Shown here: in pieces, positions 3,907 to 50,644 of the stretch
Position numbering within the stretch: the first letter of the stretch is position 1
Layout: each line of letters begins with the position of its first letter
Virus record (IMG/VR): IMGVR_UViG_3300027868_000001
Span: 1-50,644 of that record
Direction: 5' to 3' (one strand)
Length of the DNA: 50,644 bases
Source: a virus
Made by a program: the position numbers and the translations under genes
Notes under the pieces: generated by a model
Told to the model about the DNA's origin: nothing
The model's input: the letters and a program-made list of their open reading frames with translations, nothing else
The model's database searches: none

Positions 3907-4087
3907 GTAATCTTGCGTCCCTAGTCGTTAGGTCGCTAAAGCATTGCGTATATTGATCCTGTGGCGTCCAAGTTATATAAACCCTGTCGTCACTGCCTCG
4001 GCCAACACATCCATTCCTTTCCGATGTTGTACTGTCTAAGCTCCTTAAGCAGCAGATCATATTTCTTCGCTTTTTATTGACACTCAT
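3866..4087 (-). CDS. hypothetical early protein
   Basis: 73-aa ORF. Confidence 0.5.
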   Translation of the reverse strand: MSVNKKRRNMICCLRSLDSTTSERNGCVGRGSDDRVYITWTPQDQYTQCFSDLTTRDARLLAKRINQFLDGGG

Positions 4088-4506
4088 ACAATAACCCTAA
4101 TCGGCCTATTCCCATCATCGAGATAAATCTTGCCTTTCTTTGCCAGAATATCCAGCATGTTACAAACGGTTTGTGTTGTTTTAAATTTAAACTCTAGCCG
4201 CAATTCCTCCTTTGTCGGAGTCTGTTTGTTGCACGTATTATACAACTTTATGTACTTGTAAACTCTTGTCTGAAGGTCGGATAATTTCTGCCTAATCACT
4301 TTCTTTTTTCGCTGTGGCTCGGCTCTGTTCAAACCCTTCAGGTCTGATGCCGTTGGAGTGAATGTTATGCCACTTACTCCAGGTTCTATTTTTTCTATTT
4401 TGCCCCCACCATCTAAATACTTTTTAATCTCTTCGGTTATGCCATCTCTGTATTGAGTGTTAACCATGTTGCAGTTTTTAGTATCTGGTTGGTGATGGAG
4501 CATCAT
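4084..4506 (-). CDS. DNA-binding protein with C-terminal LexA-type winged helix
   Basis: C-terminus KLSDLQTRVYKYIKLY....QTPTKEELRLEF..KTTQTVCNMLDILAKKGKIYL....RPIRVI resembles the LexA N-terminal wHTH pattern. Confidence 0.5.
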   Translation of the reverse strand: MMLHHQPDTKNCNMVNTQYRDGITEEIKKYLDGGGKIEKIEPGVSGITFTPTASDLKGLNRAEPQRKKKVIRQKLSDLQTRVYKYIKLYNTCNKQTPTKEELRLEFKFKTTQTVCNMLDILAKKGKIYLDDGNRPIRVIV

Positions 4507-7076: not shown

Positions 7077-7314
7077 TTGGAATAGTCCTCGCGGTTACTT
7101 CATCTTCCCACCGCTCATTATTTAGATACGTGGCAGCATGGGGTATAAACTGCTTGTCTTGCCATTCTCCAGCCTTTGCCCTGGCGTTCAAATTGTCTTC
7201 AATGTCGCGCTTGACAGCAAAAGAAGGTTTTAGCTTGTTCCATGCTTTCCTAGCTTCCGCTTTGTGAGTCTTTCGTGGATAGATGAACCAGAAATCATTA
7301 AATGTCACTATCAT
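6853..7314 (-). CDS. replication-associated protein (conserved N-terminal FWxxYPRK...AWxKL...IPHxATYLNxERWEDE domain); tail overlaps next gene
   Basis: 153-aa ORF; the conserved-looking part ends near residue 75; the remaining 224 nt overlap CDS 6558-7076 in another frame. Confidence 0.5.
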   Translation of the reverse strand: MIVTFNDFWFIYPRKTHKAEARKAWNKLKPSFAVKRDIEDNLNARAKAGEWQDKQFIPHAATYLNNERWEDEVTARTIPNGQRKESNAERSTRQTTEILANIEAREAHSSSVGANEPTLRPQVGHAGRPPHDGERRLFEGISSVVPEDGAFDG

Positions 7315-8678: not shown

Positions 8679-8910
8679 GAATACCGTGCGGAGCCACAAG
8701 AGGACGATCCGCCCAGCTACGCCTTATCACAGTTGCGTAACTTCAGCCTGTACGGGTGCAGTGACACCCCCTACCGCCTTGGCTTTGCCTGGCTTGCGCT
8801 GGTAGTCTTCATACGCTTTAAATGTTAGCCGGTGAGGTTAGTCCCTTTCGCTTCTATCGGTTTGATAGGGCAGACAGGCATCATCTCTCTCTAACATCGA
8901 GCCAAGGTAT

Positions 8911-8938
8911 TTGATGGAGAACAGTTTTTTGGTATAAT
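8911..8938 (+). promoter_or_regulatory. near-consensus sigma70-type promoter on plus strand (antisense to the early operon)
   Basis: TTGATG (8911-16), 16-nt spacer, TATAAT (8933-38). Confidence 0.4.
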
Positions 8939-9026
8939 CCGGGCTGGCCGGATAAAGTGATTCGTTACCAATCTAACTGTCACCAATGGTACTGAAATAC
9001 CGATGGCTTATTTGCTTTAAGACTAA

Positions 9027-9044
9027 GGGCTGAACGAACAGCCC
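9027..9044 (-). terminator. hairpin downstream of CDS 9079-9447
   Basis: GGGCTG-AACGAA-CAGCCC; weak U tract (TTAGTCTT) on the minus strand. Confidence 0.4.
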
Positions 9045-9078
9045 CCAACACATAAAGACTTGAAACTAAATATTATAC

Positions 9079-12996: not shown

Positions 12997-13139
12997 ATTA
13001 ACCCACGGATAAACTGCCAAGGATGGCTATATAGACCATTATTAAAAGCTGTGCTGTAGATATAGGTTTTGAGTCTCCCAAGGCAAGATAAATCGCAGCA
13101 CAGCCTCTAATAGCGGTTTAACCAGCAAAGGTAATTAAT

Positions 13140-13289
13140 ATGAAACGCGAAGACATTTCAGAAGCAATTGACCGGCTATTTGCAGAGGTCGATAAAGAAA
13201 CGGGCAATACTAAAGATGAGCCGATTACCGATGTATTTATTACTGGCAGATCTGACAATGTTATTTATGTTGATTTTACTGGAGCGTGA
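13140..13289 (+). CDS. micro-protein (49 aa)
   Basis: Hand-translated MKREDISEAIDRLFAEVDKE...VDFTGA; ends inside the first GGAGCGTGATAAATGA junction. Confidence 0.45.
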   Translation: MKREDISEAIDRLFAEVDKETGNTKDEPITDVFITGRSDNVIYVDFTGA

Positions 13290-13292
13290 TAA

Positions 13293-13463
13293 ATGATTAG
13301 AACGGAAGTTGGCCGCGTTGAAATATGGTCACACAAGGATGGCAAGATAGACATACATTGCGGCTCTAACGAGATGATCGAGGGAATGACCCTTACTAGT
13401 CTTGACGATTTAGAGCGAGCCATTGCAGAGCATAAACGTAAGCTAGAGGAGCGTGATAAATGA
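13293..13463 (+). CDS. micro-protein (56 aa)
   Basis: MIRTEVGRVEIWSHKDGKIDIHCG...KLEERDK; starts and ends at the GGAGCGTGATAAATGA junctions. Confidence 0.5.
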   Translation: MIRTEVGRVEIWSHKDGKIDIHCGSNEMIEGMTLTSLDDLERAIAEHKRKLEERDK

Positions 13464-20032: not shown

Positions 20033-23000
20033 TCATTCTTTGCCTGTGACGATAAGCCCATAAGGTGAAAACTCATCAATTTCATTGTCTTGTAAATCAA
20101 TCAAATAGCCAGCCGTTCTTTCAAACTGCCTTCCTCCGGGTACATGGAAAACACCCGCGGTACTGGATAAAAACCGCATCATTTCTTTCTTTGTGACTTC
20201 CTCGTCTGGGTGCAGTGTATCGTACACAAGATCCATGGCCTCAAAAGGATAGGTGGCTAACTGTGCGGCTGGAGTGGGAAAAGAACTTCCATACTTCGCA
20301 TAGCTGGCACCCTCTCGGATTAGAGGGAATAGTCCAAGCCCATAATACACCACCGACTCAGTAATTTCTTTTGCTGGCTCATCGTCTCCGCCACCAGATA
20401 TTAACATCTCGACAATGCCTGGAATAACAATCAACCAGCCCATTTTTAGCAGTAAGTCAGTCTTGCTAATTTTACCTGCTTTATATCTTTTGACTTGCTC
20501 AACAGAAATATTGTAAATCGCGCTCATCGCACTGAACATGACCGTCATGGTCTTCATAAGCTCACTACGGGTCTCTACGTTGGCTAAGTCCAAATCCAAG
20601 CCAGAGCCTTGGGTTCTTGCCACTACCCTGTCAGCGTGGTCTATGGCTTCCTGCTCGGTCTCAAACATCGACTCGCCTTGACGATAAGCGGCTAACCAAA
20701 TAGGCCTTGTAATGGCTCTATCTGTGAGGGTCATCATGCCAAAAGCATTATTCTTGATTTTATTGAAAGCGGTATTGCCTTTTAAATTCTGTCGGATCTG
20801 GGCAATATCCCGGTTAATCACTTCACCGCGATTGACCATATATTCTGATTTCGACTGAATAAAGTCGCTCATTTTATTGGGGTTTGCGTAAAATTCAACA
20901 CTAGCCGCTGCTACAATCTTGGCGTCCAGCTCAGCTATCCCAGTCGTCAAACCCAGAGTATTCATTAAGGAAGTCCTGACCGAATACCCTAACGCGCTGT
21001 AAGTAGCGGCCAATCTGGCATGACGTAGAAAACGTTCTATTCCGCGAAGTCCGTTGATTTTCTGTGGGCCACTGGCGACTTCTTTTAAACGGTTTGTAAT
21101 AGTCGCTTCACCGGCAAGACCTAAACTGGTAATTAACTCGCTTTTAATCTTTCGGTTTTTTAAGACTCGGCTGACATCGCGCACCGGTTCCCAGTGAGTC
21201 AGGTCGTGGATCACACCATCAATATGATTGAATAAAACATTAACGGAAAGATCAACTTTCCGTCCGCCAAATCCAACACGTTCGATAGTAGATCCATGTT
21301 TCGTAGAAAGCTTCGCGGCACCACCGGCCATAAAGCTTTGATATTGCGTGTCGATTTCCTGCTGTTTCGGATCACTCAGCGGATCACCTACCAGCGGGTA
21401 GTAGCCACCTTTCATTTCCTTTCCAGAAGATGTTACAAAAGGTGCCGGCTGTACTTTTTCAGGAGCCGCCCCAGACCGCCGAATCTCTAATGCCGAAATA
21501 TCTTTCCAGTAAGTATCGATGTAATCCCAGACATTTTGAACCAGATCCCAATCTTTGTCAGATAAGGTTGCTACGATTTTATCAAGATCGTTCTCTGTCA
21601 TTAAGGGCTGGTCATCGGGTAACAGCTTCTCTTGGTTCAACAATGCTTCACGGTTGCTTTCGTTGCCCATATTCAAAGCCAAAGACAGTCTGGCCCCATA
21701 CGATAAAGAAACCTTTCGCCCAGAATCCAGTGTAAAAGTTCGTTTGTCTCTCAGGCCATTGAAGGCATTCTCGTACCCTTCAAACATTTCATTCAAGTGC
21801 TTGTGAGCGTCCGTCCTCATGGTTAGGGCTGTGGTTGAGGCATCCAATAAGGGTTTAATGGTTTGTTTCCATAACCAACCCTGTTCGTTCATGCCGTCCG
21901 CTTGACGAACCAAGGATTCCATTTTGCGCAGCGAAGAGAATAATTCTTGAGTGATACGCTTAGCTTTTACCCATGGAGTGTCCGTATCCACTTCCGTTTC
22001 ATAGTTTTCTATCCGATTCTCTTTTAACCATTCTCGACCTTGATCAATATTGGCCTTGTAAGCTTCAGTGTCTACCAGCTTGGCCGACTTAATAATTGAG
22101 GTCACAATATCATTAAGACCTCGAAGGTCTTCAGAGGTCATGTCATTCCAGGCTGTTAATTTCCCTAAAATCTCAGCTTCCACCAAATACGTATCAGGGT
22201 CTTTTTGTTGCGACTCAATCCAGTTTCTCACGCCTTTTAAGCGCGCTTCAGCCAGCTCAACTGATTCTCGATTGGACTTTCTGAAATCAAAGACAGAAAT
22301 CAATACTTTGGCTTCGTTAACAATTTCATTGTTGTACTTTTTGGAGTCAAATTTCCGCCCTTTGATCGATTGCAAAGAGGCTCTGATTCTTAACGTCTTC
22401 TCGCGCACCTGTGTGGCCTCGCGGGACAGATAGAAGTTCATTAGCTCTTGCGTCTTAGCCTTCTGTGCCGCGCCGAAATCGCCTTTATTTTTCGCCTCAA
22501 CTGATTGTTTCGCAGCACGTATCTCAGCCGACCGATATTGAGCCGGACGGATTTTTGAAAAAGGTAGCTTTGCGATGGTCTCTTTGGCATAAACTTTTAG
22601 GGCATCTCGATCAATAGCGTTGGTGTTATTCTTTCTGGCTATAGCATTTAACTCTGTTATTAGCTTTCGTGCTCTCTCAGGGTTCCTAACCGCCGCCTCC
22701 GCTTCTTCTTGAATCGTTCCGTCATTTAAAATATCCCCATGGCGTCGAACCATTTCAGATTCAGTCAGTCGCTGGGTTTCTTGTGCCAGAGTGGGGCTTT
22801 CTTCAATGACGTGAATTAATTCATTGCCTGAAGCAAAACCAAATAGTGCGGCCAAGTCATCAGAGTCCATGCCATCTTCAGCGGTCATACCTCTAAATCT
22901 TGGGGTTATCTGGCCCAGTTCAGCATGCACTTTAGCCTTTGATAGTTTTGGCCCTTCGCTGCTTTTTAGGGTTTCTGTGGCCGAGTAAAGTGGGTTTTTA

Positions 23001-26000
23001 ATCAGCTCCTCTCGAACGCCTTTAGCCACAACCGCTGATTCATCCTTCCACCACTTCTTATAGGTGCGCTCCAACTGCTTAACCATCTTGGTTTGAAGCA
23101 ATTCTTTCGCACCCTCGGAGGTGGACTGTTTTGAATAAGTCTTATATTCAGCCTGAGTCATACCGGCATCTTCAGCCGATTCAAACAGAGGATCGAAGTT
23201 GCCTTTTACGCGGTCAATTTCTTGGTCAGTGGCTAACATTCGATCCATCACACCGCGAACTTCGTCGTTTAATTCAACGTTTAGGCGGGTAAGATCTCGA
23301 TAGACCTGTTTTAACCAAGCTGCAAATCGACGGAAAGCCGACTGAAGGCCGATGGACGGGGCTTTACCTTCGCTTAGATATCTCTCAAAGCCTCGTGCAA
23401 ATTTCTCAAGAGCATCTGTTGATTCTTTGGTTCGAACCCGTTTTTTTGTTTTTGGGTCTACCTCATACCGGTTTAAATCCGCAAAAGACTCCACTCCCAA
23501 CCATTTTAAAATCTCATCGCCATCGGCCTTAATTTGAGGGGTTGCCTTCGGATGGCCATAGATTTTCTCTTCCATAGCCAAAAACAGATGACCGGATTCA
23601 TGGAGAAAGGTGCTTAAATTTGACGCTTCGGTTAGCTGGATTATGGCTGAATCAGGTAAGAGTAGGATTTTTCCGCGAACGCCTTTCTGTTCATCTTGAA
23701 ATAGGGGCTGGCCTTCAAGCGCTGAACCTTTTGCTTTGTCAGTCAAACTTACATTGAACACTTCGCCAATATCCGGTAAATCAACTACCGATACCTTGGC
23801 CGATTTATCCAGCTTTCTAGCCACCTTTTTGAAGATGTTGGGTAGGGTGCGGTCATAAAAACCACGCATTCCTTCACCTCCAATCTTGAGGTCAACACCT
23901 GACAAACTGGTTCCGTAAATATTGCTTTCCCCTTCTCCGTTTATTATTTTTTCAGCTATTTCTTTTCCAACAACGGAATCTAATTCATCTGCTTTATATC
24001 GCGATTGCGGCAAATTAATTTCATTAAGATTTTTATCTGTAATTTCCAGCTCGTATTCATCACCATGCTTTCGATACCCTATAGCCTCAACCTTTTCGCT
24101 CAGATCATACCTATCAGCTTGCTGCTCTCCCGTTGTCCACGATACAGAGTCATAACCTTCTTCAGAGGCAATTCTTAGAATGCGTTTAATGGCAAGCTCG
24201 GCCCATGCGTTAGTTGAGCCTATGAATGGGGCGTTTGGCACTCCTGTTCTGGCAAGCTTTTCTCTGACCACATAATCTTTGGCCTCAGCCTCAGTCTTGT
24301 ATTTACTTTTTGGAATCTGTAAAACATTATCTGGCACCCTAAAATACCAAAACAATTCTGGCTGAGAGGCTTCTGGCAACCCTTCTATCAGAGGCTGAAC
24401 ATCTTCCGGCTTATATCTTTTCTCAATACCTTTTTTTCTGGCGTCTTGTCCGTAATCGCTCTGGATTTCTTCAACAAACAAAACCTTATTGCCATCCGAA
24501 TCAATGCGGTCGTTTAAGCGAACATGGGCAAGGATGTTGGGTTCGTCGAAATGGGTAGATTTGAATTCGTCTCTTCTGCCTGACGCACCGCTCTGCTTGC
24601 TCTCTGCTGGAGTTCCTTTTTCAAGCTCTATTCTTCTTTTTGTAAGCTCTGTATATTCTCTGTAATGCGCTGTAGGCTCTTTTCCGCTATCGCGGTCATA
24701 GTAATCTGTTTCTGGATTGTATGAATTATCCAGCTCTTTAAGTCTTGCATTAACACGCTTCAGTTCATTTGAATCAAACTGTTTAGCAGGCAGCGTCAGC
24801 AACACCTCGCGGTAATTCTCGCCGCCTGGAAGTTGGTAGTCTTGGAATTTAGTACCGTCTGCATCTGTTCGACCGCCCAAATCTCTCGGTTCTCGATCTT
24901 CTAGCTGAGCCAAAACATCTTCGCTTTCTTGGGATATTCCCGCTCCTTTCCGAACCTCTTCAATCTGGACACCATTGCTATCCACAAAGTCCTGAATCTC
25001 TTGCTTAGTGACTTTCTCACCGGATTCTTTTTTAGCACTTAGGTATTCTGCAAGGCCAGTCCATTCCAGCTCTTCGGCTTTCACTCCAGGTTGTTTTTTG
25101 ATGGTATTTAGCATCTGTTGAGCGGGGCCAGATTCTTGTTTTAATTTGCCAACGGCATCGGATAAGCCTGAGAAAAAGCCAAGCTCATCCTGAAATAACT
25201 CCTTCCCAAGAAATTCCTCGAAAAATTCAGTTTCCTCTTTCTTGAAATCAGGATCGTGGTATTTTTCCTGAAGCTCCTCAAACGATAAAACCTCACCTTC
25301 GATAACGTACCGCAAATCTTTAGGATCGGTGCTTTCATTCACCAGCACCTCAGAAGCGCGTCCAGAGGCTTCTGTGTGCTGCTCAGGCACTAATATACCG
25401 ACACCCTCACCATAGACAGGGAATTGGCCATCATTGATTAGAGTGGCTGATATACCGGGCTGGCCTTCAAAATCTCGACCTACTTGAAGCTCTTCCAGAT
25501 TCGCAATGGCTTGAAGCTCAGCAATAGACGTACCTCTGAATGAATCTTCAGGTTTAACCTTTTCCTCAATCAGTAAGGTGTTGATGGTGGTTTTAGCGGC
25601 TTCTTTTTTGTCTTCAAGCGCTTGATCTAAAACCGCACCGGTTAATTCCGCTTCAGGCCCAACAATCTTTAATCCCATCATTTCGTACACTTCATCGACC
25701 GTTAAGCCGGTACGAGCAGCCTTAGTGGTGACATAAGCAGGAATTAGCGTAGCGGAAGTCTTAGCAGCGGCTGGAGTCAGTCGTCCAGTCTCGATAAGTT
25801 GTTGTGAGACTTCGGCGTATATCTCATCAGCGCGAGTTTTCAGATCTACGTTCTGACTGGCTTCAGCTAAAATAGCCGCCGCATCGGCTTCACCCTCATA
25901 CTCGGGTGAAAGGCGCATTAAAGGCTTTAGAGTTTCGTAATTCTTGGAAGCCAGCAAAGGGCCAGCCTGTTCAATAGGAATGACTATATCGCCGCCCAGG

Positions 26001-27241
26001 GCTTGAGCTTCGGCCAGTTGTTCACGGATTAACGCAATTTCCGGCCCGTCTTCCAGCGCTTCTTGATTTAATAATGATCCCACCTCTTCAGCGTTCAGAT
26101 AAATATCAGCCTGCCCGTATTCTTCCACCACGTTTTGAAGGTGTTGCGCAAAAACATCTGGAGAGCGTTGCAGGACTTTGGATTCTTTGGCCTTGTCCGC
26201 CATTTGTTGAATTTGGGACTGCTCACGAGTGAGTTTATTAATCGCACTAATCGAGGCGGTTTGTAAGCCGGTCGCGACTACGGTAGAAATTAAAGTGTCT
26301 ACTGCGGCACCAGGTCGTTCAGCCACGAATTCAGATAGGGTTTTATCAGGATTGATGGCAGCCCAGGCATTGGCGTCTTGCCAGAGGGTGGCCGCTTGCT
26401 CGGTGGGAATTTCTCTAGCCATTTGGCCGAGTATGGTTTTTACCAAACCGGTATCTTTAGCTAAATCATCGAATAATTTAAACGCTGGGATTCTTTCAGT
26501 CACCACTTCGGCCATGCCGTCACTTAATGCAAAGGTAAAGGCGTTGTAATTACTGAGACCCGCATCTTTAGCCCGAGCATAAGAAGTACCATAGGTCTGG
26601 GTACCCATGATGGCTAAAGCCGTGTTGGGGTTTCGAGTCGCTAGACCGGCACCCAAAGCCGTTAAATTGGTGAAAAAGGACTGAACACCGCTGATTACCG
26701 GGGCAGGGACGTAAGTTTCACCAGGCTTGGGTAAAGCCCTTTGACCTTTGGCTATTTCAGCTTGACCGATACCACCCAAATATCGACCCGCCGCACCAAA
26801 AAGATCTTGCTCTTTGATTTCTTCAGGTGACATAAAGGGCGTGAAGGGGGCTGTGGTAATGTCTGAAGCTAAGTCAAATAAAGATCCGGTCGCCGCATAA
26901 AGCCCACCAGAAGCCGTTAGAGCCGCTGCTTGGCCTATCTTGCCAACGTTCTTGGCTTCGCGCCCCACCGTCTCCCACCATTTCAGATTTTCTAGGTCGT
27001 CGCGAGAGACTTCAGCGTTTTTTCGTTCTCGTAAGAAATCAGCAAGCAGTGGGGAAAGGTCGTCATAATCGACTTGCGACTGGACTTCATTGGTATTTCT
27101 TTCCACGTAATCAGGGGGGAATCCGGTACGGTCAGAAAGATTGTAAATCTTGGCCGATTGGTCAGGGTTTTGCGCACGATCTAAATTTAGCTTTGTATCG
27201 CGTAGCGTTTCCTCCTCAAGTTCTTTAAAGAATTCACTCAT
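20033..27241 (-). CDS. giant internal-virion (ejected) polyvalent protein with zincin motif
   Basis: 2402 aa. HESGH at residues 1214-1218 (nt 23588-23602). LFVEEIQSD and GGEGMRGFYDRTLPNIFKK polyvalent-protein-type motifs. C-terminal TM segment and PLIREG (PLxRFG-like, nt 20309-20326). Sits in the T7 gp15/16 position. Confidence 0.65.
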   Translation of the reverse strand: MSEFFKELEEETLRDTKLNLDRAQNPDQSAKIYNLSDRTGFPPDYVERNTNEVQSQVDYDDLSPLLADFLRERKNAEVSRDDLENLKWWETVGREAKNVGKIGQAAALTASGGLYAATGSLFDLASDITTAPFTPFMSPEEIKEQDLFGAAGRYLGGIGQAEIAKGQRALPKPGETYVPAPVISGVQSFFTNLTALGAGLATRNPNTALAIMGTQTYGTSYARAKDAGLSNYNAFTFALSDGMAEVVTERIPAFKLFDDLAKDTGLVKTILGQMAREIPTEQAATLWQDANAWAAINPDKTLSEFVAERPGAAVDTLISTVVATGLQTASISAINKLTREQSQIQQMADKAKESKVLQRSPDVFAQHLQNVVEEYGQADIYLNAEEVGSLLNQEALEDGPEIALIREQLAEAQALGGDIVIPIEQAGPLLASKNYETLKPLMRLSPEYEGEADAAAILAEASQNVDLKTRADEIYAEVSQQLIETGRLTPAAAKTSATLIPAYVTTKAARTGLTVDEVYEMMGLKIVGPEAELTGAVLDQALEDKKEAAKTTINTLLIEEKVKPEDSFRGTSIAELQAIANLEELQVGRDFEGQPGISATLINDGQFPVYGEGVGILVPEQHTEASGRASEVLVNESTDPKDLRYVIEGEVLSFEELQEKYHDPDFKKEETEFFEEFLGKELFQDELGFFSGLSDAVGKLKQESGPAQQMLNTIKKQPGVKAEELEWTGLAEYLSAKKESGEKVTKQEIQDFVDSNGVQIEEVRKGAGISQESEDVLAQLEDREPRDLGGRTDADGTKFQDYQLPGGENYREVLLTLPAKQFDSNELKRVNARLKELDNSYNPETDYYDRDSGKEPTAHYREYTELTKRRIELEKGTPAESKQSGASGRRDEFKSTHFDEPNILAHVRLNDRIDSDGNKVLFVEEIQSDYGQDARKKGIEKRYKPEDVQPLIEGLPEASQPELFWYFRVPDNVLQIPKSKYKTEAEAKDYVVREKLARTGVPNAPFIGSTNAWAELAIKRILRIASEEGYDSVSWTTGEQQADRYDLSEKVEAIGYRKHGDEYELEITDKNLNEINLPQSRYKADELDSVVGKEIAEKIINGEGESNIYGTSLSGVDLKIGGEGMRGFYDRTLPNIFKKVARKLDKSAKVSVVDLPDIGEVFNVSLTDKAKGSALEGQPLFQDEQKGVRGKILLLPDSAIIQLTEASNLSTFLHESGHLFLAMEEKIYGHPKATPQIKADGDEILKWLGVESFADLNRYEVDPKTKKRVRTKESTDALEKFARGFERYLSEGKAPSIGLQSAFRRFAAWLKQVYRDLTRLNVELNDEVRGVMDRMLATDQEIDRVKGNFDPLFESAEDAGMTQAEYKTYSKQSTSEGAKELLQTKMVKQLERTYKKWWKDESAVVAKGVREELIKNPLYSATETLKSSEGPKLSKAKVHAELGQITPRFRGMTAEDGMDSDDLAALFGFASGNELIHVIEESPTLAQETQRLTESEMVRRHGDILNDGTIQEEAEAAVRNPERARKLITELNAIARKNNTNAIDRDALKVYAKETIAKLPFSKIRPAQYRSAEIRAAKQSVEAKNKGDFGAAQKAKTQELMNFYLSREATQVREKTLRIRASLQSIKGRKFDSKKYNNEIVNEAKVLISVFDFRKSNRESVELAEARLKGVRNWIESQQKDPDTYLVEAEILGKLTAWNDMTSEDLRGLNDIVTSIIKSAKLVDTEAYKANIDQGREWLKENRIENYETEVDTDTPWVKAKRITQELFSSLRKMESLVRQADGMNEQGWLWKQTIKPLLDASTTALTMRTDAHKHLNEMFEGYENAFNGLRDKRTFTLDSGRKVSLSYGARLSLALNMGNESNREALLNQEKLLPDDQPLMTENDLDKIVATLSDKDWDLVQNVWDYIDTYWKDISALEIRRSGAAPEKVQPAPFVTSSGKEMKGGYYPLVGDPLSDPKQQEIDTQYQSFMAGGAAKLSTKHGSTIERVGFGGRKVDLSVNVLFNHIDGVIHDLTHWEPVRDVSRVLKNRKIKSELITSLGLAGEATITNRLKEVASGPQKINGLRGIERFLRHARLAATYSALGYSVRTSLMNTLGLTTGIAELDAKIVAAASVEFYANPNKMSDFIQSKSEYMVNRGEVINRDIAQIRQNLKGNTAFNKIKNNAFGMMTLTDRAITRPIWLAAYRQGESMFETEQEAIDHADRVVARTQGSGLDLDLANVETRSELMKTMTVMFSAMSAIYNISVEQVKRYKAGKISKTDLLLKMGWLIVIPGIVEMLISGGGDDEPAKEITESVVYYGLGLFPLIREGASYAKYGSSFPTPAAQLATYPFEAMDLVYDTLHPDEEVTKKEMMRFLSSTAGVFHVPGGRQFERTAGYLIDLQDNEIDEFSPYGLIVTGKE

Positions 27242-37628: not shown

Positions 37629-40118
37629 TTACCTCCGCTTACGCCATGCCTTGTTATTAACGATAGGCTTTTTATTACCAGACATACCGTTACGCCAGTC
37701 TTGAAATCTGTTTTCTATTTTATCCCCTTTTGACCAAGAATTCACCACCGCGTCACCTTCGTCAGGAGAGCGGCCTAAACGCTTGACTAAATCCTCTTTA
37801 GTCTCAAGGTGAACCACGTTGCCTTTGATCTTGTAAAGAGGGGCTGTTAGATCAGCAAACAGTCGTGTATCAGGCGGGAGCATTGCTTGTGAACCCCCAG
37901 GCTGCGTAGGATCTAGAAGCTCTCTGAAGCGCCAGTAAACCTTGGTTCTTTCATTGGCAAATTCATATAAAAACCTACATATGCTGCGCTCATTCGAACC
38001 GGTTGATCCCTTATGGGCATAAACCGGAATATTATTCTCTTCCAATTTGCCATAAGTGGCGCTCCCATATCCCCCGCCTGCATCAATAACGACAACCGCG
38101 TTATCTCGTCTGACCTCTAGGATCGGAGCAAGAAGATCAGTACCAATAGGCGTGTCCTTTCCAGGAATTTTTACAAGCTTGTCCCACCATCGATCATAAC
38201 GAGGAGCGATAATGTTCCAGTCTTCACCGCCTTGAGCTGGATCTACGCCAATAGCATTCATTGGTATTCCGCGAGGCGGTTGGTCTGTCCATCGATCTTG
38301 TGCGGCTTTCACCCATGCAGCAGGGATACATTGCATAGGATTGTCGCGTAATGTCCGCTTGAATAATCCTTCACGGTAGGCTTCACGTAACTGACTGGGC
38401 AAGGCGGATAGAACGGCATCATAATCCGTTTCAAGTAGATCAGGATTATCTACCAATGAAGCACGAATAAACGTTCTGCTTCGAGCTGTAAGCGTCTCGC
38501 CTTCGATCTCATAGTTACCAGGGCCAGCCACCTCCATGGACATATCGTTAGCATCTTGCACAAACCAACGTAACTCACCATCTTTAGCCGGATTGGAATG
38601 ATCAGGATCTAACCAAGGCGCCCAATATTCAATAACCCAAAGCCCTTCAGGATCAGTAGGAGGATTGCCGGTACAAATGACTCTCGATCGATGACCTTTA
38701 GCTGAACGGTTCCAAGCTTTGACAAACGCATACACAGAGTAGGGAAAGTCACAAATCTCATCAAAACCAATTAGGTCATGCGGTCTACCTTTGAAGCGCT
38801 GCTTGTCCTTCTCGTCCTTAATCCCGCGAAACTCTATCTTGCGGTCTTTGTCTTTGAATGTAAGTAATTGCCCATTCCATCCAACTTTAGGTTGTTCAAT
38901 CTCAAGGAATCTATCGGCTAAGTCTCTTGCGTCATCCTGGAAGCGCCGGAATATGATCGACTTTTCATGCTCTTCAATGGCCATTCCAAGCAATAATTCG
39001 CTCTTTCCGCCTCCAGCGCTGTTCCCTGTGATAAATATACAGCCATTATGGCGAGCCACCCAAAAGGTAGAAGGAACTCTAAAACAGTACATAAATAAAG
39101 CAGGTATTCGGTCAATCCTTACTGCGTCAACCCGTAGGGTAACGGTGGATTTTGGACTATTTAGATGGCTGATATAAACATTATGTAGCGCCGAGGCATT
39201 ACCGCAAGCAGGGGCTGTTCTTAATGTGGCGACTCTTCCACAAGCATGGGCGGCGTATTGAATAAAATCAGCGTCAATTTTATTGGTCGAACAAAACGAT
39301 ATATCGCCTCCATTCACACCAGAGTAGTTCCCGTCCCAATGAGACATTTCCTCAAGTATTATCTCTAGTTGATGTTGGTTTGCCCCCCACCATTCACCAA
39401 CAAATTGCTTGGTTAGGATGGGAGAATCAAACCCATATCTAATCTCAGTTGGGCGGTTCGGGTTCTTGTATATGTGAGGGTTAATATCAAGAGAGGAAAA
39501 CAGCGTTAATAATCTGTCTATTTTCCGTGTCTTTCTCAGAGATATACGGCAATGAGCACCGCCGTCTTTCTTCCTGTAAGTGAGATTACCGTCAGCATGA
39601 ATAGCTACTCCAATCCTGATTAAGTCATCAGACATAGGCAGCCCTTTATGAGGTACTGTAAAATTAACAGGGACTTTATGTCGAGAGGGGTTTTCGGCTA
39701 CATCACACGCTTTCTTAACTATAAAATTATCTCTATAATCATACAAAGGCATCCTATGATCATCGCTCAGCATCATTGATAGTCTAGAATGCTGGAAATG
39801 AATTAGTTCTTTGCAAGGATATTCAAGATATTCCGGGTCAACAAACCCAATCACACCATCTTTCCATTGGGCAATCGTCTCCCCGCTGTACTCAGAAATC
39901 TTCACCCATCCCTGTGGAGATAAGAATTCTGTATCCTCAGAAACACAACCTCCGAAAAACATCTCATCAGCCAATGAAGCCCGCGCCATCGTCTGAGGGC
40001 CAGGATTAGGCACCCATTTGCGATTCCCAATAACAGAAAGAGCCTGCTGATAGGCTGCATCTACCTGTTCTTTGGGTAGAGAATCGAACCTATCAACAAG
40101 CTCTGTGAGTGCGGACAT
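37629..40118 (-). CDS. terL: terminase large subunit, intein-containing
   Basis: Exteins read EMFFGG|SAGGGKSELLLG (Walker A) and LIGFDE (Walker B). Nuclease Asp motifs IGVDPAQGGED, VVIDAGGGYG and SPDEGDAV. 520 aa without the insert. Confidence 0.9.
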   Translation of the reverse strand: MSALTELVDRFDSLPKEQVDAAYQQALSVIGNRKWVPNPGPQTMARASLADEMFFGGCVSEDTEFLSPQGWVKISEYSGETIAQWKDGVIGFVDPEYLEYPCKELIHFQHSRLSMMLSDDHRMPLYDYRDNFIVKKACDVAENPSRHKVPVNFTVPHKGLPMSDDLIRIGVAIHADGNLTYRKKDGGAHCRISLRKTRKIDRLLTLFSSLDINPHIYKNPNRPTEIRYGFDSPILTKQFVGEWWGANQHQLEIILEEMSHWDGNYSGVNGGDISFCSTNKIDADFIQYAAHACGRVATLRTAPACGNASALHNVYISHLNSPKSTVTLRVDAVRIDRIPALFMYCFRVPSTFWVARHNGCIFITGNSAGGGKSELLLGMAIEEHEKSIIFRRFQDDARDLADRFLEIEQPKVGWNGQLLTFKDKDRKIEFRGIKDEKDKQRFKGRPHDLIGFDEICDFPYSVYAFVKAWNRSAKGHRSRVICTGNPPTDPEGLWVIEYWAPWLDPDHSNPAKDGELRWFVQDANDMSMEVAGPGNYEIEGETLTARSRTFIRASLVDNPDLLETDYDAVLSALPSQLREAYREGLFKRTLRDNPMQCIPAAWVKAAQDRWTDQPPRGIPMNAIGVDPAQGGEDWNIIAPRYDRWWDKLVKIPGKDTPIGTDLLAPILEVRRDNAVVVIDAGGGYGSATYGKLEENNIPVYAHKGSTGSNERSICRFLYEFANERTKVYWRFRELLDPTQPGGSQAMLPPDTRLFADLTAPLYKIKGNVVHLETKEDLVKRLGRSPDEGDAVVNSWSKGDKIENRFQDWRNGMSGNKKPIVNNKAWRKRR
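39021..39947 (-). mobile_element. intein (309 aa) with LAGLIDADG homing-endonuclease domain, inserted in the TerL P-loop
   Basis: Residues C58-N366. Block A CVSEDTEFL; block B MLSDDHRMP. DOD motifs LIRIGVAIHADGN (nt 39588-39623) and LEIILEEMSHWDGN (nt 39327-39368). Blocks F/G MYCFRV...FWVARHNGCIFITGN followed by the +1 Ser. Confidence 0.85.
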
Positions 40119-47956: not shown

Positions 47957-48295
47957 TCAGTCTTGATTCGTGCCTTCCACTGCTCTTGTCATACGGTCTC
48001 GCGTTCTGGCTTCTTGCCAGTGCAAAGCTTCCTCTAAGTGAGTGATGGTTAGTGAGTTTTCGCGGCATCCGTGAGCGTTGTTAAATGATCGATATAACCC
48101 GATAGCGTAGCGGATAATATCCGTAGCATCACAGCCGTTTCTGCCAGCCTCAGCTACAGGGCCAGACTGAACGGTAAAAGCCACTAAACCGGGGAAATGG
48201 CCTTCTATTTTGTCGCTACCGATAATTACATAAGCGTCATCTTGGACGTTTTTTACTGCATTGTAGAGGTGTTGATTGTAGTCTGTATTAGACAT
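47957..48295 (-). CDS. conserved-looking phage protein of unknown function
   Basis: 112 aa; C-terminal CRENSLTITHLEEALHWQEARTRDRMTRAVEGT motif. Confidence 0.65.
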   Translation of the reverse strand: MSNTDYNQHLYNAVKNVQDDAYVIIGSDKIEGHFPGLVAFTVQSGPVAEAGRNGCDATDIIRYAIGLYRSFNNAHGCRENSLTITHLEEALHWQEARTRDRMTRAVEGTNQD

Positions 48296-48952: not shown

Positions 48953-49154
48953 TGGTTAAAGCCTCTTGCAGTCTTTGTCGCATTAAATCATTTTTTAGTT
49001 TAGCACCCATTACTCTTTTTATTTGTTTTTGCCTGTCAACAAACCTTGGGGTAATTAAATTATATTTCCAGTTGCCGCAATTATCGCAAAGATGAATAGG
49101 CAGTTCATCTCCCTGCACCTCTACGCTACATTTTGTACAGCGATAAATGCTCAT
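48927..49154 (-). CDS. zinc-ribbon protein
   Basis: CTKCS...CDNCG. Confidence 0.6.
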   Translation of the reverse strand: MSIYRCTKCSVEVQGDELPIHLCDNCGNWKYNLITPRFVDRQKQIKRVMGAKLKNDLMRQRLQEALTNGIQVFSE

Positions 49155-49244
49155 GTCTTTCCTTTTTGGAAACAGTTGGGCTTACCTCTACCGTAAAGTA
49201 AAATATAAATATTCTTAATGTACTTTTAAGGGGTTTCAGGGTAT

Positions 49245-49403
49245 CTACCGTTGATTATTAGCCGCTCTTTCGGCTATAAACTGTTCTAATTTTTCGTAGA
49301 ATTCGCCACTATTTAAGGCGTCAACGTAAATATTCCACACATCATTGACATCCATATCGTAATCTTTAGCCGCTTGAGTAACGCTGTTCGGGTATGTGGT
49401 CAT
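49245..49403 (-). CDS. micro-protein (52 aa)
   Basis: Hand-translated MTTYPNSVTQAAKDYDMDVNDVWNIYVDALNSGEFYEKLEQFIAERAANNQR. Confidence 0.45.
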   Translation of the reverse strand: MTTYPNSVTQAAKDYDMDVNDVWNIYVDALNSGEFYEKLEQFIAERAANNQR

Positions 49404-49426
49404 ATTCTCTACCGTTAATTAATTGA

Positions 49427-49501
49427 AGCCCCGGACAGGACTCGAACCTGCATCACATTGGATTTATCCGCAGTCGGCATACCAGTTAACCGCACCGGAG
49501 C
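49427..49501 (-). tRNA. tRNA-like module lacking a canonical anticodon arm
   Basis: Acceptor GCTCCGG/CCGGGGC (one U.G pair). D-arm CGGT-TAACTGGTAT-GCCG. T-arm GCAGG-TTCGAGT-CCTGT. The 23 nt in between (ACTGCGGATAAATCCAATGTGAT) form no 5-bp stem with a 7-nt loop. Confidence 0.4.
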
Positions 49502-50076
49502 ATTAAAACCCGCTACTACATACTTCAGCGGGGTGGTGCTGGAGACCGGACGCTAACCCGGCTATCCTCATAGGCCGACAAAGCCTTTATATTGCCTGGC
49601 GGGTCTTCGGGAAGTTCGAGACTACCACCTATTTTGACGCTTTCACGCCTCCCGATTGCGCGGCTTTTTTCAGGTGAGGCACACCAACCTTATAACCTCT
49701 GCGTGTCTGCTTTCCACGCCGCTCCAGCTTAAACCCTCATTGAGGGGTAAAAAGGTTGAAGGCCGGTTGCTGTAAATCGAATCCGGCATCGAAATATTAT
49801 CCCCAGGTTGCACCTGATTTATAATCCAGCCCAAAAGGTGTACACCTCCTACTTAATTTCGGTCAGCGCTCCCGGACTTTAATCTACTGCGACATAGCTT
49901 TACAGGATTATTCGAGCTTCTAAGGCTTTCGCCTCCACTTGCGCATCAGCCTACGCATTCTCCAACCATAAACCCTCATACTGCGAGGGGTACTACATTT
50001 GGATCATGGCCGCCAATGTGCCTCAACACAAGACGGGCATACGCTCCAAATTCTTTCCGCTTCCGTGCGTTATTCG
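49502..50076 (-). ncRNA. candidate large structured ncRNA (~575 nt) immediately 5' of the tRNA-like module
   Basis: No ORF >=60 aa in six frames; all three stop codons are frequent; G+C-richer than neighbours; many perfect hairpins; a duplicated ~30-nt motif at 49722-50 and 49960-93. Confidence 0.45.
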
Positions 50077-50415
50077 TTAAACCTTTAATTTGTTGTACTC
50101 TAATTTGCCTTTTTCCGGATCAGCATAAGTGCCTATTACCTCTCCGCGTAAATAAAGCTTGTAGGTCGGGACATCGTTAATCATTTCTGGCCGTAAATCT
50201 TTGAGTACAATACCGTCCTTAGTCGCAGAGCAAATGCTGCCGGGGTTAATCGGTATCTCTTCGTTATCCTTAATCGAGTTCAGCGCCTTGCGTACATGGC
50301 CAGCCTTGACGGCTTTTTGATCCGCTTGATCAGGTCGGCCATTCCCTCGGTCGTCGCGTTCTTCCTCCTCAATTCCGGCTAAAGCAGTTTCTAGTATTTC
50401 TATTGCTGGGTTCAT
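50077..50415 (-). CDS. hypothetical early protein
   Basis: Start moved to the internal ATG (MNPAIEIL...), just downstream of the upstream gene stop (50423-50425); the track ORF extends to 50466. Confidence 0.6.
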   Translation of the reverse strand: MNPAIEILETALAGIEEEERDDRGNGRPDQADQKAVKAGHVRKALNSIKDNEEIPINPGSICSATKDGIVLKDLRPEMINDVPTYKLYLRGEVIGTYADPEKGKLEYNKLKV

Positions 50416-50422
50416 GGTGTAC

Positions 50423-50593
50423 CTATTTGCTGTCAGTAATTTCTTTTGTGGCGTCCTTAACTTCATCTGTCACAGCCTCAGCAGCATCCGCTAAGGGTTT
50501 TGTAACACATCGAGTAAGATCAACCGCCACCTCTACCGGGGCTGTAACCACCGTTGCTACATCTTCAACTAAACCGAATATACTTTTAAACAT
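50423..50593 (-). CDS. micro-protein (56 aa) spanning the circular junction
   Basis: Hand-translated MFKSIFGLVEDVATVVTAPVEVAVDLTRCVTKPLADAAEAVTDEVKDATKEITDSK; its 5' part is duplicated at nt 1-76. Confidence 0.5.
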   Translation of the reverse strand: MFKSIFGLVEDVATVVTAPVEVAVDLTRCVTKPLADAAEAVTDEVKDATKEITDSK

Positions 50594-50644
50594 GATGTTC
50601 TTCCTATTTGCTGTGGTTAATGGGCTTCATTTTATGAACAATTC
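50518..50644. repeat. Terminal direct repeat copy 2
   Basis: Identical to nt 1-127. Confidence 0.95.

Follow-up and report, generated by a model that had tools for sequence, protein, structure and literature searches.

What kind of element occupies the 673 nucleotides (nt) at positions 49404-50076 of the IMG/VR virus record IMGVR_UViG_3300027868_000001? The window that we analyzed is the whole of this record (50,644 nt), and the stretch in question, hereafter the block, lies within the largest gap of the genome (49155-50076, 922 nt; the runner-up has 463 nt). A first-pass annotation described the block as free of open reading frames (ORFs), packed with hairpins and ending in a tRNA-like module, and proposed that it encodes a single large ornate phage RNA, possibly of the GOLLD or ROOL class. 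We interpret the block as a candidate cluster of noncoding RNAs, tRNA-derived or at least tRNA-framed, that would be co-transcribed on the minus strand, a reading that we favor tentatively and to which we give somewhat less than an even chance of being correct. All of the structural arguments that follow are comparisons made inside this one genome.

The earlier claim that the block has no coding capacity stands: it contains no ORF of at least 60 amino acids (aa), and all six frames hold several stop codons of several kinds. In a dicodon coding-potential profile trained on the long genes of the same genome, the best frame in 49404-50076 reaches at most 0.16, whereas genes average 0.61 with a fifth percentile of 0.35. 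The minus-strand micro-ORF at 49245-49403 (52 aa) is skipped by the ENA and Logan gene callers and carries the strongest local coding signal; its dicodon score of 0.87 leads us to regard it as a real gene, and the non-coding block is thus the same 673 nt that had originally been delimited. A decayed protein gene was considered and ruled against on the grounds that no residual coding signal remains and that stops occur in all frames; to judge by these measures, the block is not a recently decayed gene.

The block is also richer in G+C than the genome (50.5% compared with 44.2%), which places it at the 98.8th percentile of windows of the same size; the other intergenic gaps in the genome range from 33 to 48%. 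The stems, the GAAA-capped hairpin and the palindrome listed in the first-pass annotation are all present at their positions. The description of the block as hairpin-dense is not borne out, given that it contains four perfect 5-base-pair (bp) hairpins compared with 4.6 ± 2.1 in other windows of the genome and 3.9 ± 1.9 in dinucleotide shuffles. Folding energies give no signal either: relative to shuffles, the minimum-free-energy z-scores are -0.09 (minus strand) and -0.61 (plus strand), and those of six sub-segments of the block fall between -0.92 and +1.0. Set against other windows of the genome, the low folding energy of the block is fully accounted for by its G+C content (z = -0.26). The composite motif reported earlier as duplicated occurs in exactly two copies genome-wide, both on the minus strand, where shuffles lead to an expectation of zero; its inverted repeat has an arm spacing of 3 nt in one copy and 7 nt in the other.

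Proposed units of the minus-strand array

Read on the minus strand, the block parses near-completely into a possible mini-unit 0, a hairpin, unit A, a hairpin, unit B followed by ACCA, a hairpin, and unit C. Each of units A, B, and C is closed by an end-to-end helix of 7-8 bp and is preceded by a C-rich hairpin and a UUUAW sequence. Units A and B have a hairpin of 5-6 bp at the position of a D arm, 2-3 nt past the 5' strand of the closing helix, and a GCCGG/CCGG(C/U) hairpin at the position of a T arm, which directly abuts the 3' strand of the closing helix; the place of the anticodon arm is taken by a domain of ~120-150 nt. Folded alone, both units form the closing helix, the 5' hairpin, a central multi-helix domain, and the 3' hairpin.

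Unit A (49754-49967, minus strand, 214 nt) was delimited from its isolated fold, an architecture scan, and a pair table. Its closing helix pairs GGUUGGAG (49967-49960) with CUUCAACC (49761-49754), includes one G-U pair, and has a probability of at least 0.98 when the unit is folded alone. The D-arm-like hairpin (49957-49940, loop GGCUGA) is followed by a GAAA-capped hairpin (49935-49922) and then by the central multi-helix domain, and the T-arm-position hairpin (GCCGG/CCGGC, 49787-49762) has a loop that starts with AUUCGAUU. The C-rich hairpin that precedes unit A (49969-49990, minus strand) pairs CCCUC (49989-49985) with GAGGG (49977-49973) across a 7-nt loop and is followed by UUUAU. Unit B (191 nt; 49534-49728 on the minus strand with its A-CCA) was delimited from the minimum-free-energy fold of the isolated unit together with the scan and the pair table. 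Its closing helix, GCUGGAG (49728-49722)/CUCCAGC (49544-49538), is perfectly complementary; a D-arm-like hairpin (49719-49701) leads to a central domain that includes a GAAA-capped hairpin (49649-49636), and the T-arm-position hairpin, GCCGG-GUUAGCGU-CCGGU (49562-49545), abuts the 3' strand of the closing helix, directly after which the A-CCA is encoded (49537-49534). The C-rich hairpin before unit B (49730-49747, minus strand) pairs CCCUC (49746-49742) with GAGGG (49738-49734) across a 3-nt loop and is followed by UUUAA. The corresponding hairpin before unit C (49505-49533, minus strand) is terminator-like and pairs CCCCGCU (49533-49527) with AGCGGG, followed by UUUUAAU.

At the 5' end of the array, reading of the sequence suggests a possible mini-unit 0 (49997-50051, minus strand) that is closed by a 7-bp end-to-end helix, AUUUGGA (50051-50045)/UCCAAAU (50003-49997), with one long irregular hairpin inside, this inner hairpin being predicted by folding. 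The 5' strand carries UGGAG-CG as in unit B. It is the weakest of the proposed units and is devoid of D-like or T-like hairpins.

The duplicated motif is the 5' edge of units A and B, and the suggestion that it marks two homologous domains can be extended to full-length paralogous units of ~190-215 nt in which all helix differences preserve pairing. The two units are approximately half identical (alignment z-scores of 3.4 global and ~3 local), and the motifs that they have in common are restricted to them genome-wide; by these alignments A and B are diverged paralogs. The equal lengths of 117 nt for central domains of A and B were judged to be coincidence, the ungapped identity being only 20%. 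In the helices HP1 (the C-rich hairpin), P1, P2, and T, all 22 pairs (21 in unit C) are standard in each of the three units. The changes between A and B in these helices comprise two that are compensatory, three that are one-sided, and none that is disruptive, and we estimate the probability that random changes would include no disruptive one at ~0.4%. Six G-U pairs in the same helices would be C-A mismatches on the plus strand, from which it follows that the structure is specific to a minus-strand RNA. In sequence, the hairpins at the T position of A and B are similar to the T arm of unit C: the loop in A starts with UUCGAUU, and the hairpin in B has the outer G-U pair in common with unit C and differs from it by one compensatory pair.

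Candidates in the architecture scan had to have a closing helix of 7 bp that included no more than one G-U pair, a hairpin 2-3 nt after its 5' strand, and a 5-bp hairpin abutting its 3' strand. It found three non-overlapping instances in the 673 nt, whereas 2000 dinucleotide shuffles contained a mean of 0.11 and none of the 2000 reached three; the remaining ~100 kb (both strands) contains ~28 instances.

Several considerations weigh against this interpretation. The criteria for the architecture scan were written after the pattern had been seen, so that the evidence is partly post hoc, and A and B, as duplicates, are not independent observations. The probabilities for the closing helices are near 0 in the ensemble of the full 673 nt, and enforcing these helices costs 21 kcal/mol (-195.5 compared with -216.9); because the acceptor stem of unit C is equally low in that ensemble (0.03), we attribute these values mainly to the limits of long-range prediction. 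A local pairing of the UGGAG segments with a preceding complementary segment fits the comparison of A and B equally well (14 pairs with three compensatory changes, matched by 75 of 500 shuffles); local alternatives of this kind are an automatic consequence of arranging self-closed units in tandem. When the central domains of A and B are replaced by an anticodon loop, ARAGORN does not call a tRNA, and no Rfam model matches within either unit. The T-position loop of unit B departs from a canonical T loop, and the hairpins of A and B at the tRNA-arm positions have non-canonical loops. Finally, the structures are predicted from a single genome for which the searches found no orthologs of the block, and the production of RNA from the block is a prediction from its sequence.

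The last member of the array, unit C (49427-49501, minus strand, 75 nt), is the tRNA-like module of the first-pass annotation. The element is present on the minus strand as described; as a tRNA gene it is sub-threshold, scoring 25.2 bits (E = 0.012) with the Rfam tRNA model, below the gathering threshold of 29, and being missed by ARAGORN with default settings. Its minimum-free-energy fold is cloverleaf-like. Three elements of the tRNA cloverleaf are there: a 7-bp acceptor stem (GCUCCGG/CCGGGGC), a D stem of 4 bp whose loop contains GG, and a T arm of canonical form, GCAGG-UUCGAGU-CCUGU, with a 5-bp stem and a UUCRANY loop. CCA is not encoded. The 17 nt at the anticodon-arm position form two of five pairs in the standard register, or three of five with an 8-nt loop in the relaxed-threshold ARAGORN call, which labels the element tRNA-??? 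and assigns it an "anticodon" of four bases. Unit C thus retains intact acceptor, D, and T helices (16 pairs) beside a broken anticodon stem. If three disruptions were distributed at random among the 21 cloverleaf pairs, we calculate a probability of ~0.8% that all would be located in the anticodon stem, and this confinement suggests an acceptor/D/T frame that has been maintained while decoding has not.

The state of unit C bears directly on the possibility that the block is a non-functional relic, either a decayed and duplicated tRNA cluster or horizontally acquired DNA of higher G+C content, which we consider unlikely. A relic would account for a tRNA-like element that is sub-threshold and lacks an anticodon stem, for the lack of a family match, of a thermodynamic signal, and of conservation found elsewhere, and for the occurrence of all this in a singleton genome with many ORFans. 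Decay is harder to reconcile with damage confined to the anticodon stem of unit C while the other 16 pairs are unbroken, or with two paralogs that are approximately half identical and in which every helix difference keeps pairing. No residual coding signal is present, the G+C content of the block exceeds that of neutral-looking intergenic DNA in the same genome, and a compact phage genome would rarely keep 670 nt of junk.

Could the block instead function as DNA, as a replication origin, a packaging site, or a phage attachment site (attP) for a host tRNA gene? We consider this very improbable. Phage attP sites are frequently copies of the 3' portion of a tRNA gene, and a 24-mer of unit C spanning T arm and acceptor is identical to tRNA sequences elsewhere. 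It occurs in the tRNA-Arg(UCU) of one phage contig, but it also occurs in tRNA-Val, tRNA-Asn, and tRNA-Arg of DPANN archaea and Dehalococcoidia; because tRNAs of different identities in unrelated taxa have it in common, it is uninformative about the host, and neither the ancestry of unit C nor the host can be inferred from it. An attP remnant is made unlikely by a Pfam scan of 73 ORFs that found no integrase (and no reverse transcriptase) and by the presence in unit C of its own matching 5' acceptor strand and D arm, which an attP would not need. The block contains no iterons, tandem repeats, or type III antitoxin-like arrays, and cumulative GC skew has no inflection there. The unequal arm spacing of the duplicated inverted repeat (3 and 7 nt) suits an RNA hairpin and not a dimeric DNA-binding site, and the G-U pairs make the helices strand-specific.

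A separate observation concerns an odd tRNA-Arg(UCU)-like element at ~7130-7210 of IMGVR_UViG_3300037467_000733, a 172-kb jumbo-phage contig. It has a normal acceptor stem and normal anticodon and T arms, lacks a D arm, has a 23-nt variable region, and is missed by ARAGORN.

RNA families and the single-RNA alternative

Membership of known families was assessed with Rfam 15, using the whole window at gathering thresholds and, with permissive filters and E ≤ 10, the segments 49100-50300, 49534-49732, and 49750-50076. The whole window gave no match at gathering thresholds. The three permissive scans returned only the sub-threshold tRNA together with noise (P9, a microRNA, a CRISPR repeat, and a small nucleolar RNA). 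Group I and group II introns, RNase P RNA, 6S RNA, YrlA, OLE, and HEARO were without a match at E ≤ 10, and ARAGORN with default settings found no tRNA or transfer-messenger RNA (tmRNA) genes in the window. An intron-split tRNA and a permuted tmRNA were rejected because the corresponding relaxed-threshold ARAGORN calls are junk with G-U-filled stems. A tmRNA, judged by a tRNA-like domain with G3-U70 and a canonical T arm, by a tag reading frame, and by pseudoknots, was also rejected: there is no default ARAGORN call, unit B has U3-A70 at the position of the G3-U70 pair, and the low-threshold calls yield only implausible tag peptides. Two segments recall catalytic RNAs, GTTCGAGACTACC (49615-49628, plus strand) resembling the group I intron R element and AAAGUCCGGGAG (49869-49881, minus strand) resembling the 5' strand of the RNase P P4 helix; as catalytic-RNA cores both were judged to be chance resemblances, neither family being matched in Rfam. 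The locus belongs to no known RNA family and is best filed as a variant among the noncoding RNAs of phage tRNA regions.

The proposed membership in GOLLD or ROOL was assessed with a conserved multi-junction 3' half as the mark of GOLLD and with six multistem junctions, three pseudoknots, and a length of ~580 nt as the marks of ROOL; the Rfam models for both are unmatched even at E ≤ 10 with permissive filters. The setting is of the GOLLD/ROOL type, a phage genome with a neighboring tRNA-like element, which is suggestive but does not define a family.

We also considered one large RNA of ~600 nt with two homologous domains and a tRNA-like 3' processing signal, as in mascRNA, that would constitute a new class akin to GOLLD and ROOL. 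The non-coding, G+C-rich, minus-strand character of the block fits such an RNA equally well, its two homologous domains are real, and the hairpin directly 5' of unit C could serve to protect a 3' end; GOLLD and ROOL are themselves often found near tRNAs and in prophages (PMC5737381). We nevertheless regard it as quite unlikely. In addition to the absence of a match to any Rfam family at E ≤ 10, GOLLD and ROOL included, folding is no better than in shuffles. The domains close on themselves, conserved spacer hairpins separate them, and A-CCA follows one of them, all of which separate units fit better. The single ornate fold of ~670 nt proposed earlier thus has no thermodynamic signal, and the anatomy resembles a tandem array of separately closed units.

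Homologs that could speak for either arrangement were not found in the collections searched. Nucleotide searches (blastn) with the block against 50,697 phage records and 72,556 plasmids gave no match, and scans for its motifs gave six matches in IMG/VR, all of them unrelated gene-end hairpins, and none in JGI metagenomes. The flanking proteins (129 aa, 106 aa, and the small terminase subunit) have no relatives in IMG/VR. The large terminase subunit has no relative in GTDB genomes and matches one 2.7-kb fragment in JGI metagenomes, contig Ga0255048_10029897, at 85% identity; this fragment stops short of the block region. For the 129-aa protein, 5.8 billion clusters contained no homolog and 1.84 billion representatives contained one marginal partial match, and seven neighboring proteins are singleton clusters. 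Look-ups of exact proteins led back to this phage alone, recovered in two samples in which the block region is identical.

Genome setting and proposed mechanism

The window represents a complete phage genome of ~50.5 kb that is circular or terminally redundant, as indicated by an exact 127-nt direct repeat common to its two ends (1-127 and 50518-50644) and by a source ENA contig that is continuous over the end junction. The encoded proteins include a T7-type head-tail connector, capsid, small and large terminase subunits, RecT, NinG, and an Acb2/Tad1-family protein; portal identity to the nearest cultured phages is at most 27%. All genes are on the minus strand except for a plus-strand block at ~12.4-18.1 kb, and this near-uniform orientation places 49404-50076 inside one long leftward transcription unit. 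NinG is encoded ~2.5 kb upstream of the block, and accessory, terminase, and structural genes are located downstream.

This same-strand gene order (NinG, small genes, the gap, small and large terminase subunits, portal, and capsid) is lambdoid-like and raises the possibility of a cis-acting leader of the late operon. The three C-rich hairpins with their U-rich tracts would then be tandem weak intrinsic terminators that are read through under phage control, situated between nin-like early/middle genes and late genes as is the region downstream of Q in lambdoid phages, and the tRNA-like element would be a passenger relic. In the lambdoid phages that encode Shiga toxin (Stx), the leader between Q and the lysis genes contains tRNA genes. 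Among the three spacer hairpins, the one before unit A is flagged as terminator-like and is the only one to pass the terminator scan; the third is terminator-like. The U tracts, however, are short (UUUA, with only 3-4 consecutive U), a scan of the block found no sigma-70-like promoter, and the 129-aa protein encoded upstream matches neither a Q-like nor any other family (the predicted local distance difference test score of its structure model, 57, is too low for a fold search). A leader also leaves the high G+C content, the ~200-nt paralogous bodies with pairing-preserving changes, and the A-CCA unexplained, and on balance we hold it to be improbable. The leader and the relic alike become less probable in view of the high G+C content, the restriction of the damage to the anticodon stem, and a divergence of A and B that preserves pairing.

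For the array of tRNA-derived or tRNA-framed RNAs, we propose the following mechanism. The array would be transcribed as part of the long leftward operon, given that there is no room for promoters between the units, and enzymes of host tRNA maturation would release discrete stable RNAs from it. RNase P would cleave 5' of each closing helix, while RNase E and exonucleases would act on the AU-rich spacer that follows each hairpin. The proposed role of RNase P draws on the ability of the bacterial enzyme to process tRNA-like substrates that are not tRNAs, phage-induced RNAs included (PMC4919922); the tRNA region of phage T4, a loose precedent, yields two small RNAs without an assigned role (PMC3014915). 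That the elbow (acceptor and T arm) is kept and the anticodon is dispensable points to the tRNA shape being used for processing, stability, or protein binding, and not for decoding. The predicted RNA ends can be given to the nucleotide: 49967/49754, 49728/49534, and 49501/49427.

A more specific form of this proposal, which we consider unlikely, is that the units are natural "tRNA-scaffolded" RNAs, two of them ~200-nt tRNA descendants that carry ~120-150 nt of cargo in the place of the anticodon arm and the third an anticodon-less mimic. The acceptor stem and the D/T elbow would be kept, with an encoded CCA end in one RNA. By means of this frame the RNAs would co-opt host RNase P, 3' trimming, and CCA addition, as well as the stability of tRNA-like molecules, for delivery of the cargo. 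Conceivable cargoes include a decoy or sponge that acts on a host defense or translation factor, an idea that takes its cue from an anti-defense neighborhood, an Acb2-like gene being located 1.1 kb downstream. If the units are real RNAs, the array would parallel in nature the engineered "tRNA scaffold" with which recombinant RNAs are expressed and would represent a new phage route to exploit host tRNA maturation for non-decoding RNAs, and it would join the short list of large phage noncoding RNAs (GOLLD, ROOL, T4 RNAC, and RNAD). If they are not, an uncultured singleton phage simply carries an unusual spacer here.

Other features of the neighborhood and the genome merit description. Unit C is separated from the start of the 52-aa gene by a short spacer (49404-49426, minus strand) that carries TAATTAACGGTAGAG (49421-49407), one copy of a 14/15-nt direct repeat, TAAT[TC]AACGGTAGA. 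Two copies flank the 52-aa gene (49407-49421 and 49243-49257) and a third is located upstream of the next gene (49186-49200); the repeats around the 52-aa gene could be an insertion scar or a regulatory site. The Acb2/Tad1-hairpin family protein (47957-48295, minus strand) belongs to Pfam PF24729, which we take to be an anti-CBASS sponge family. The contexts of its homologs (55-67% identity) in other phages are unrelated, which suggests a mobile gene; the contigs that carry these homologs are not syntenic with the present genome and have no similarity to the block. In a 140-aa protein (4087-4506, minus strand), a SutA RNA-polymerase-binding domain is joined to a LexA-type DNA-binding domain, and the protein may act as a phage transcription regulator through contact with host RNA polymerase. 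The large terminase subunit (37629-40118, minus strand, 829 aa) has ~375 residues without an assigned domain N-terminal to Terminase_6N, and a 2402-aa ORF (20033-27241, minus strand) is located in the tail/structural region. Two further ORF-poor gaps, 8681-9078 (398 nt, with a fairly high G+C content of 47.7%) and 12997-13459 (463 nt), contain no RNA gene according to the whole-window Rfam and ARAGORN scans, the only scans run there.

Comparison with known systems

Among known systems, bacterial Y RNAs of the YrlA type are, like the RNAs proposed here, noncoding, and they contain a module that mimics T and D arms without an anticodon (PMC4201824). In contrast to the block, which has no match to the Rfam YrlA model, they are ~100 nt long and have a Ro-binding stem. 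The Pfam scan of the 73 ORFs found no member of the TROVE/Ro family.

The RNAC and RNAD of phage T4 are ~120-140 nt long. They resemble the proposed units in being stable RNAs other than tRNAs, without an assigned role, that are encoded beside co-transcribed phage tRNA-type genes (PMC3014915). They differ in their location amid eight functional tRNAs, whereas none is functional here and the units are ~200 nt, and the search of the phage collection revealed no sequence relationship.

The likeness to tmRNA concerns unit B, which has a 7-bp acceptor-like end helix, an abutting T-position hairpin, A-CCA, and a large insert that replaces the anticodon arm. Unlike tmRNA, unit B lacks G3-U70, a credible tag frame, and a canonical T loop, and it is 191 nt long compared with ~260-400 nt.

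GOLLD and ROOL share with the block several hundred nt of non-coding phage sequence that adjoins a tRNA-type element (PMC5737381). Each of those RNAs has one multi-junction fold, whereas the block consists of tandem self-closed units and has no covariance-model match at E ≤ 10.

Finally, mascRNA on MALAT1 and the non-tRNA substrates of bacterial RNase P mimic an acceptor and T arm with a defective or short anticodon arm (PMC4919922, PMC11693755), and in the array described here, as in those RNAs, the ends would be defined by RNase P. Those examples are eukaryotic or single bacterial RNAs, whereas the phage operon would contain three consecutive frames of this kind, each predicted to be processed.

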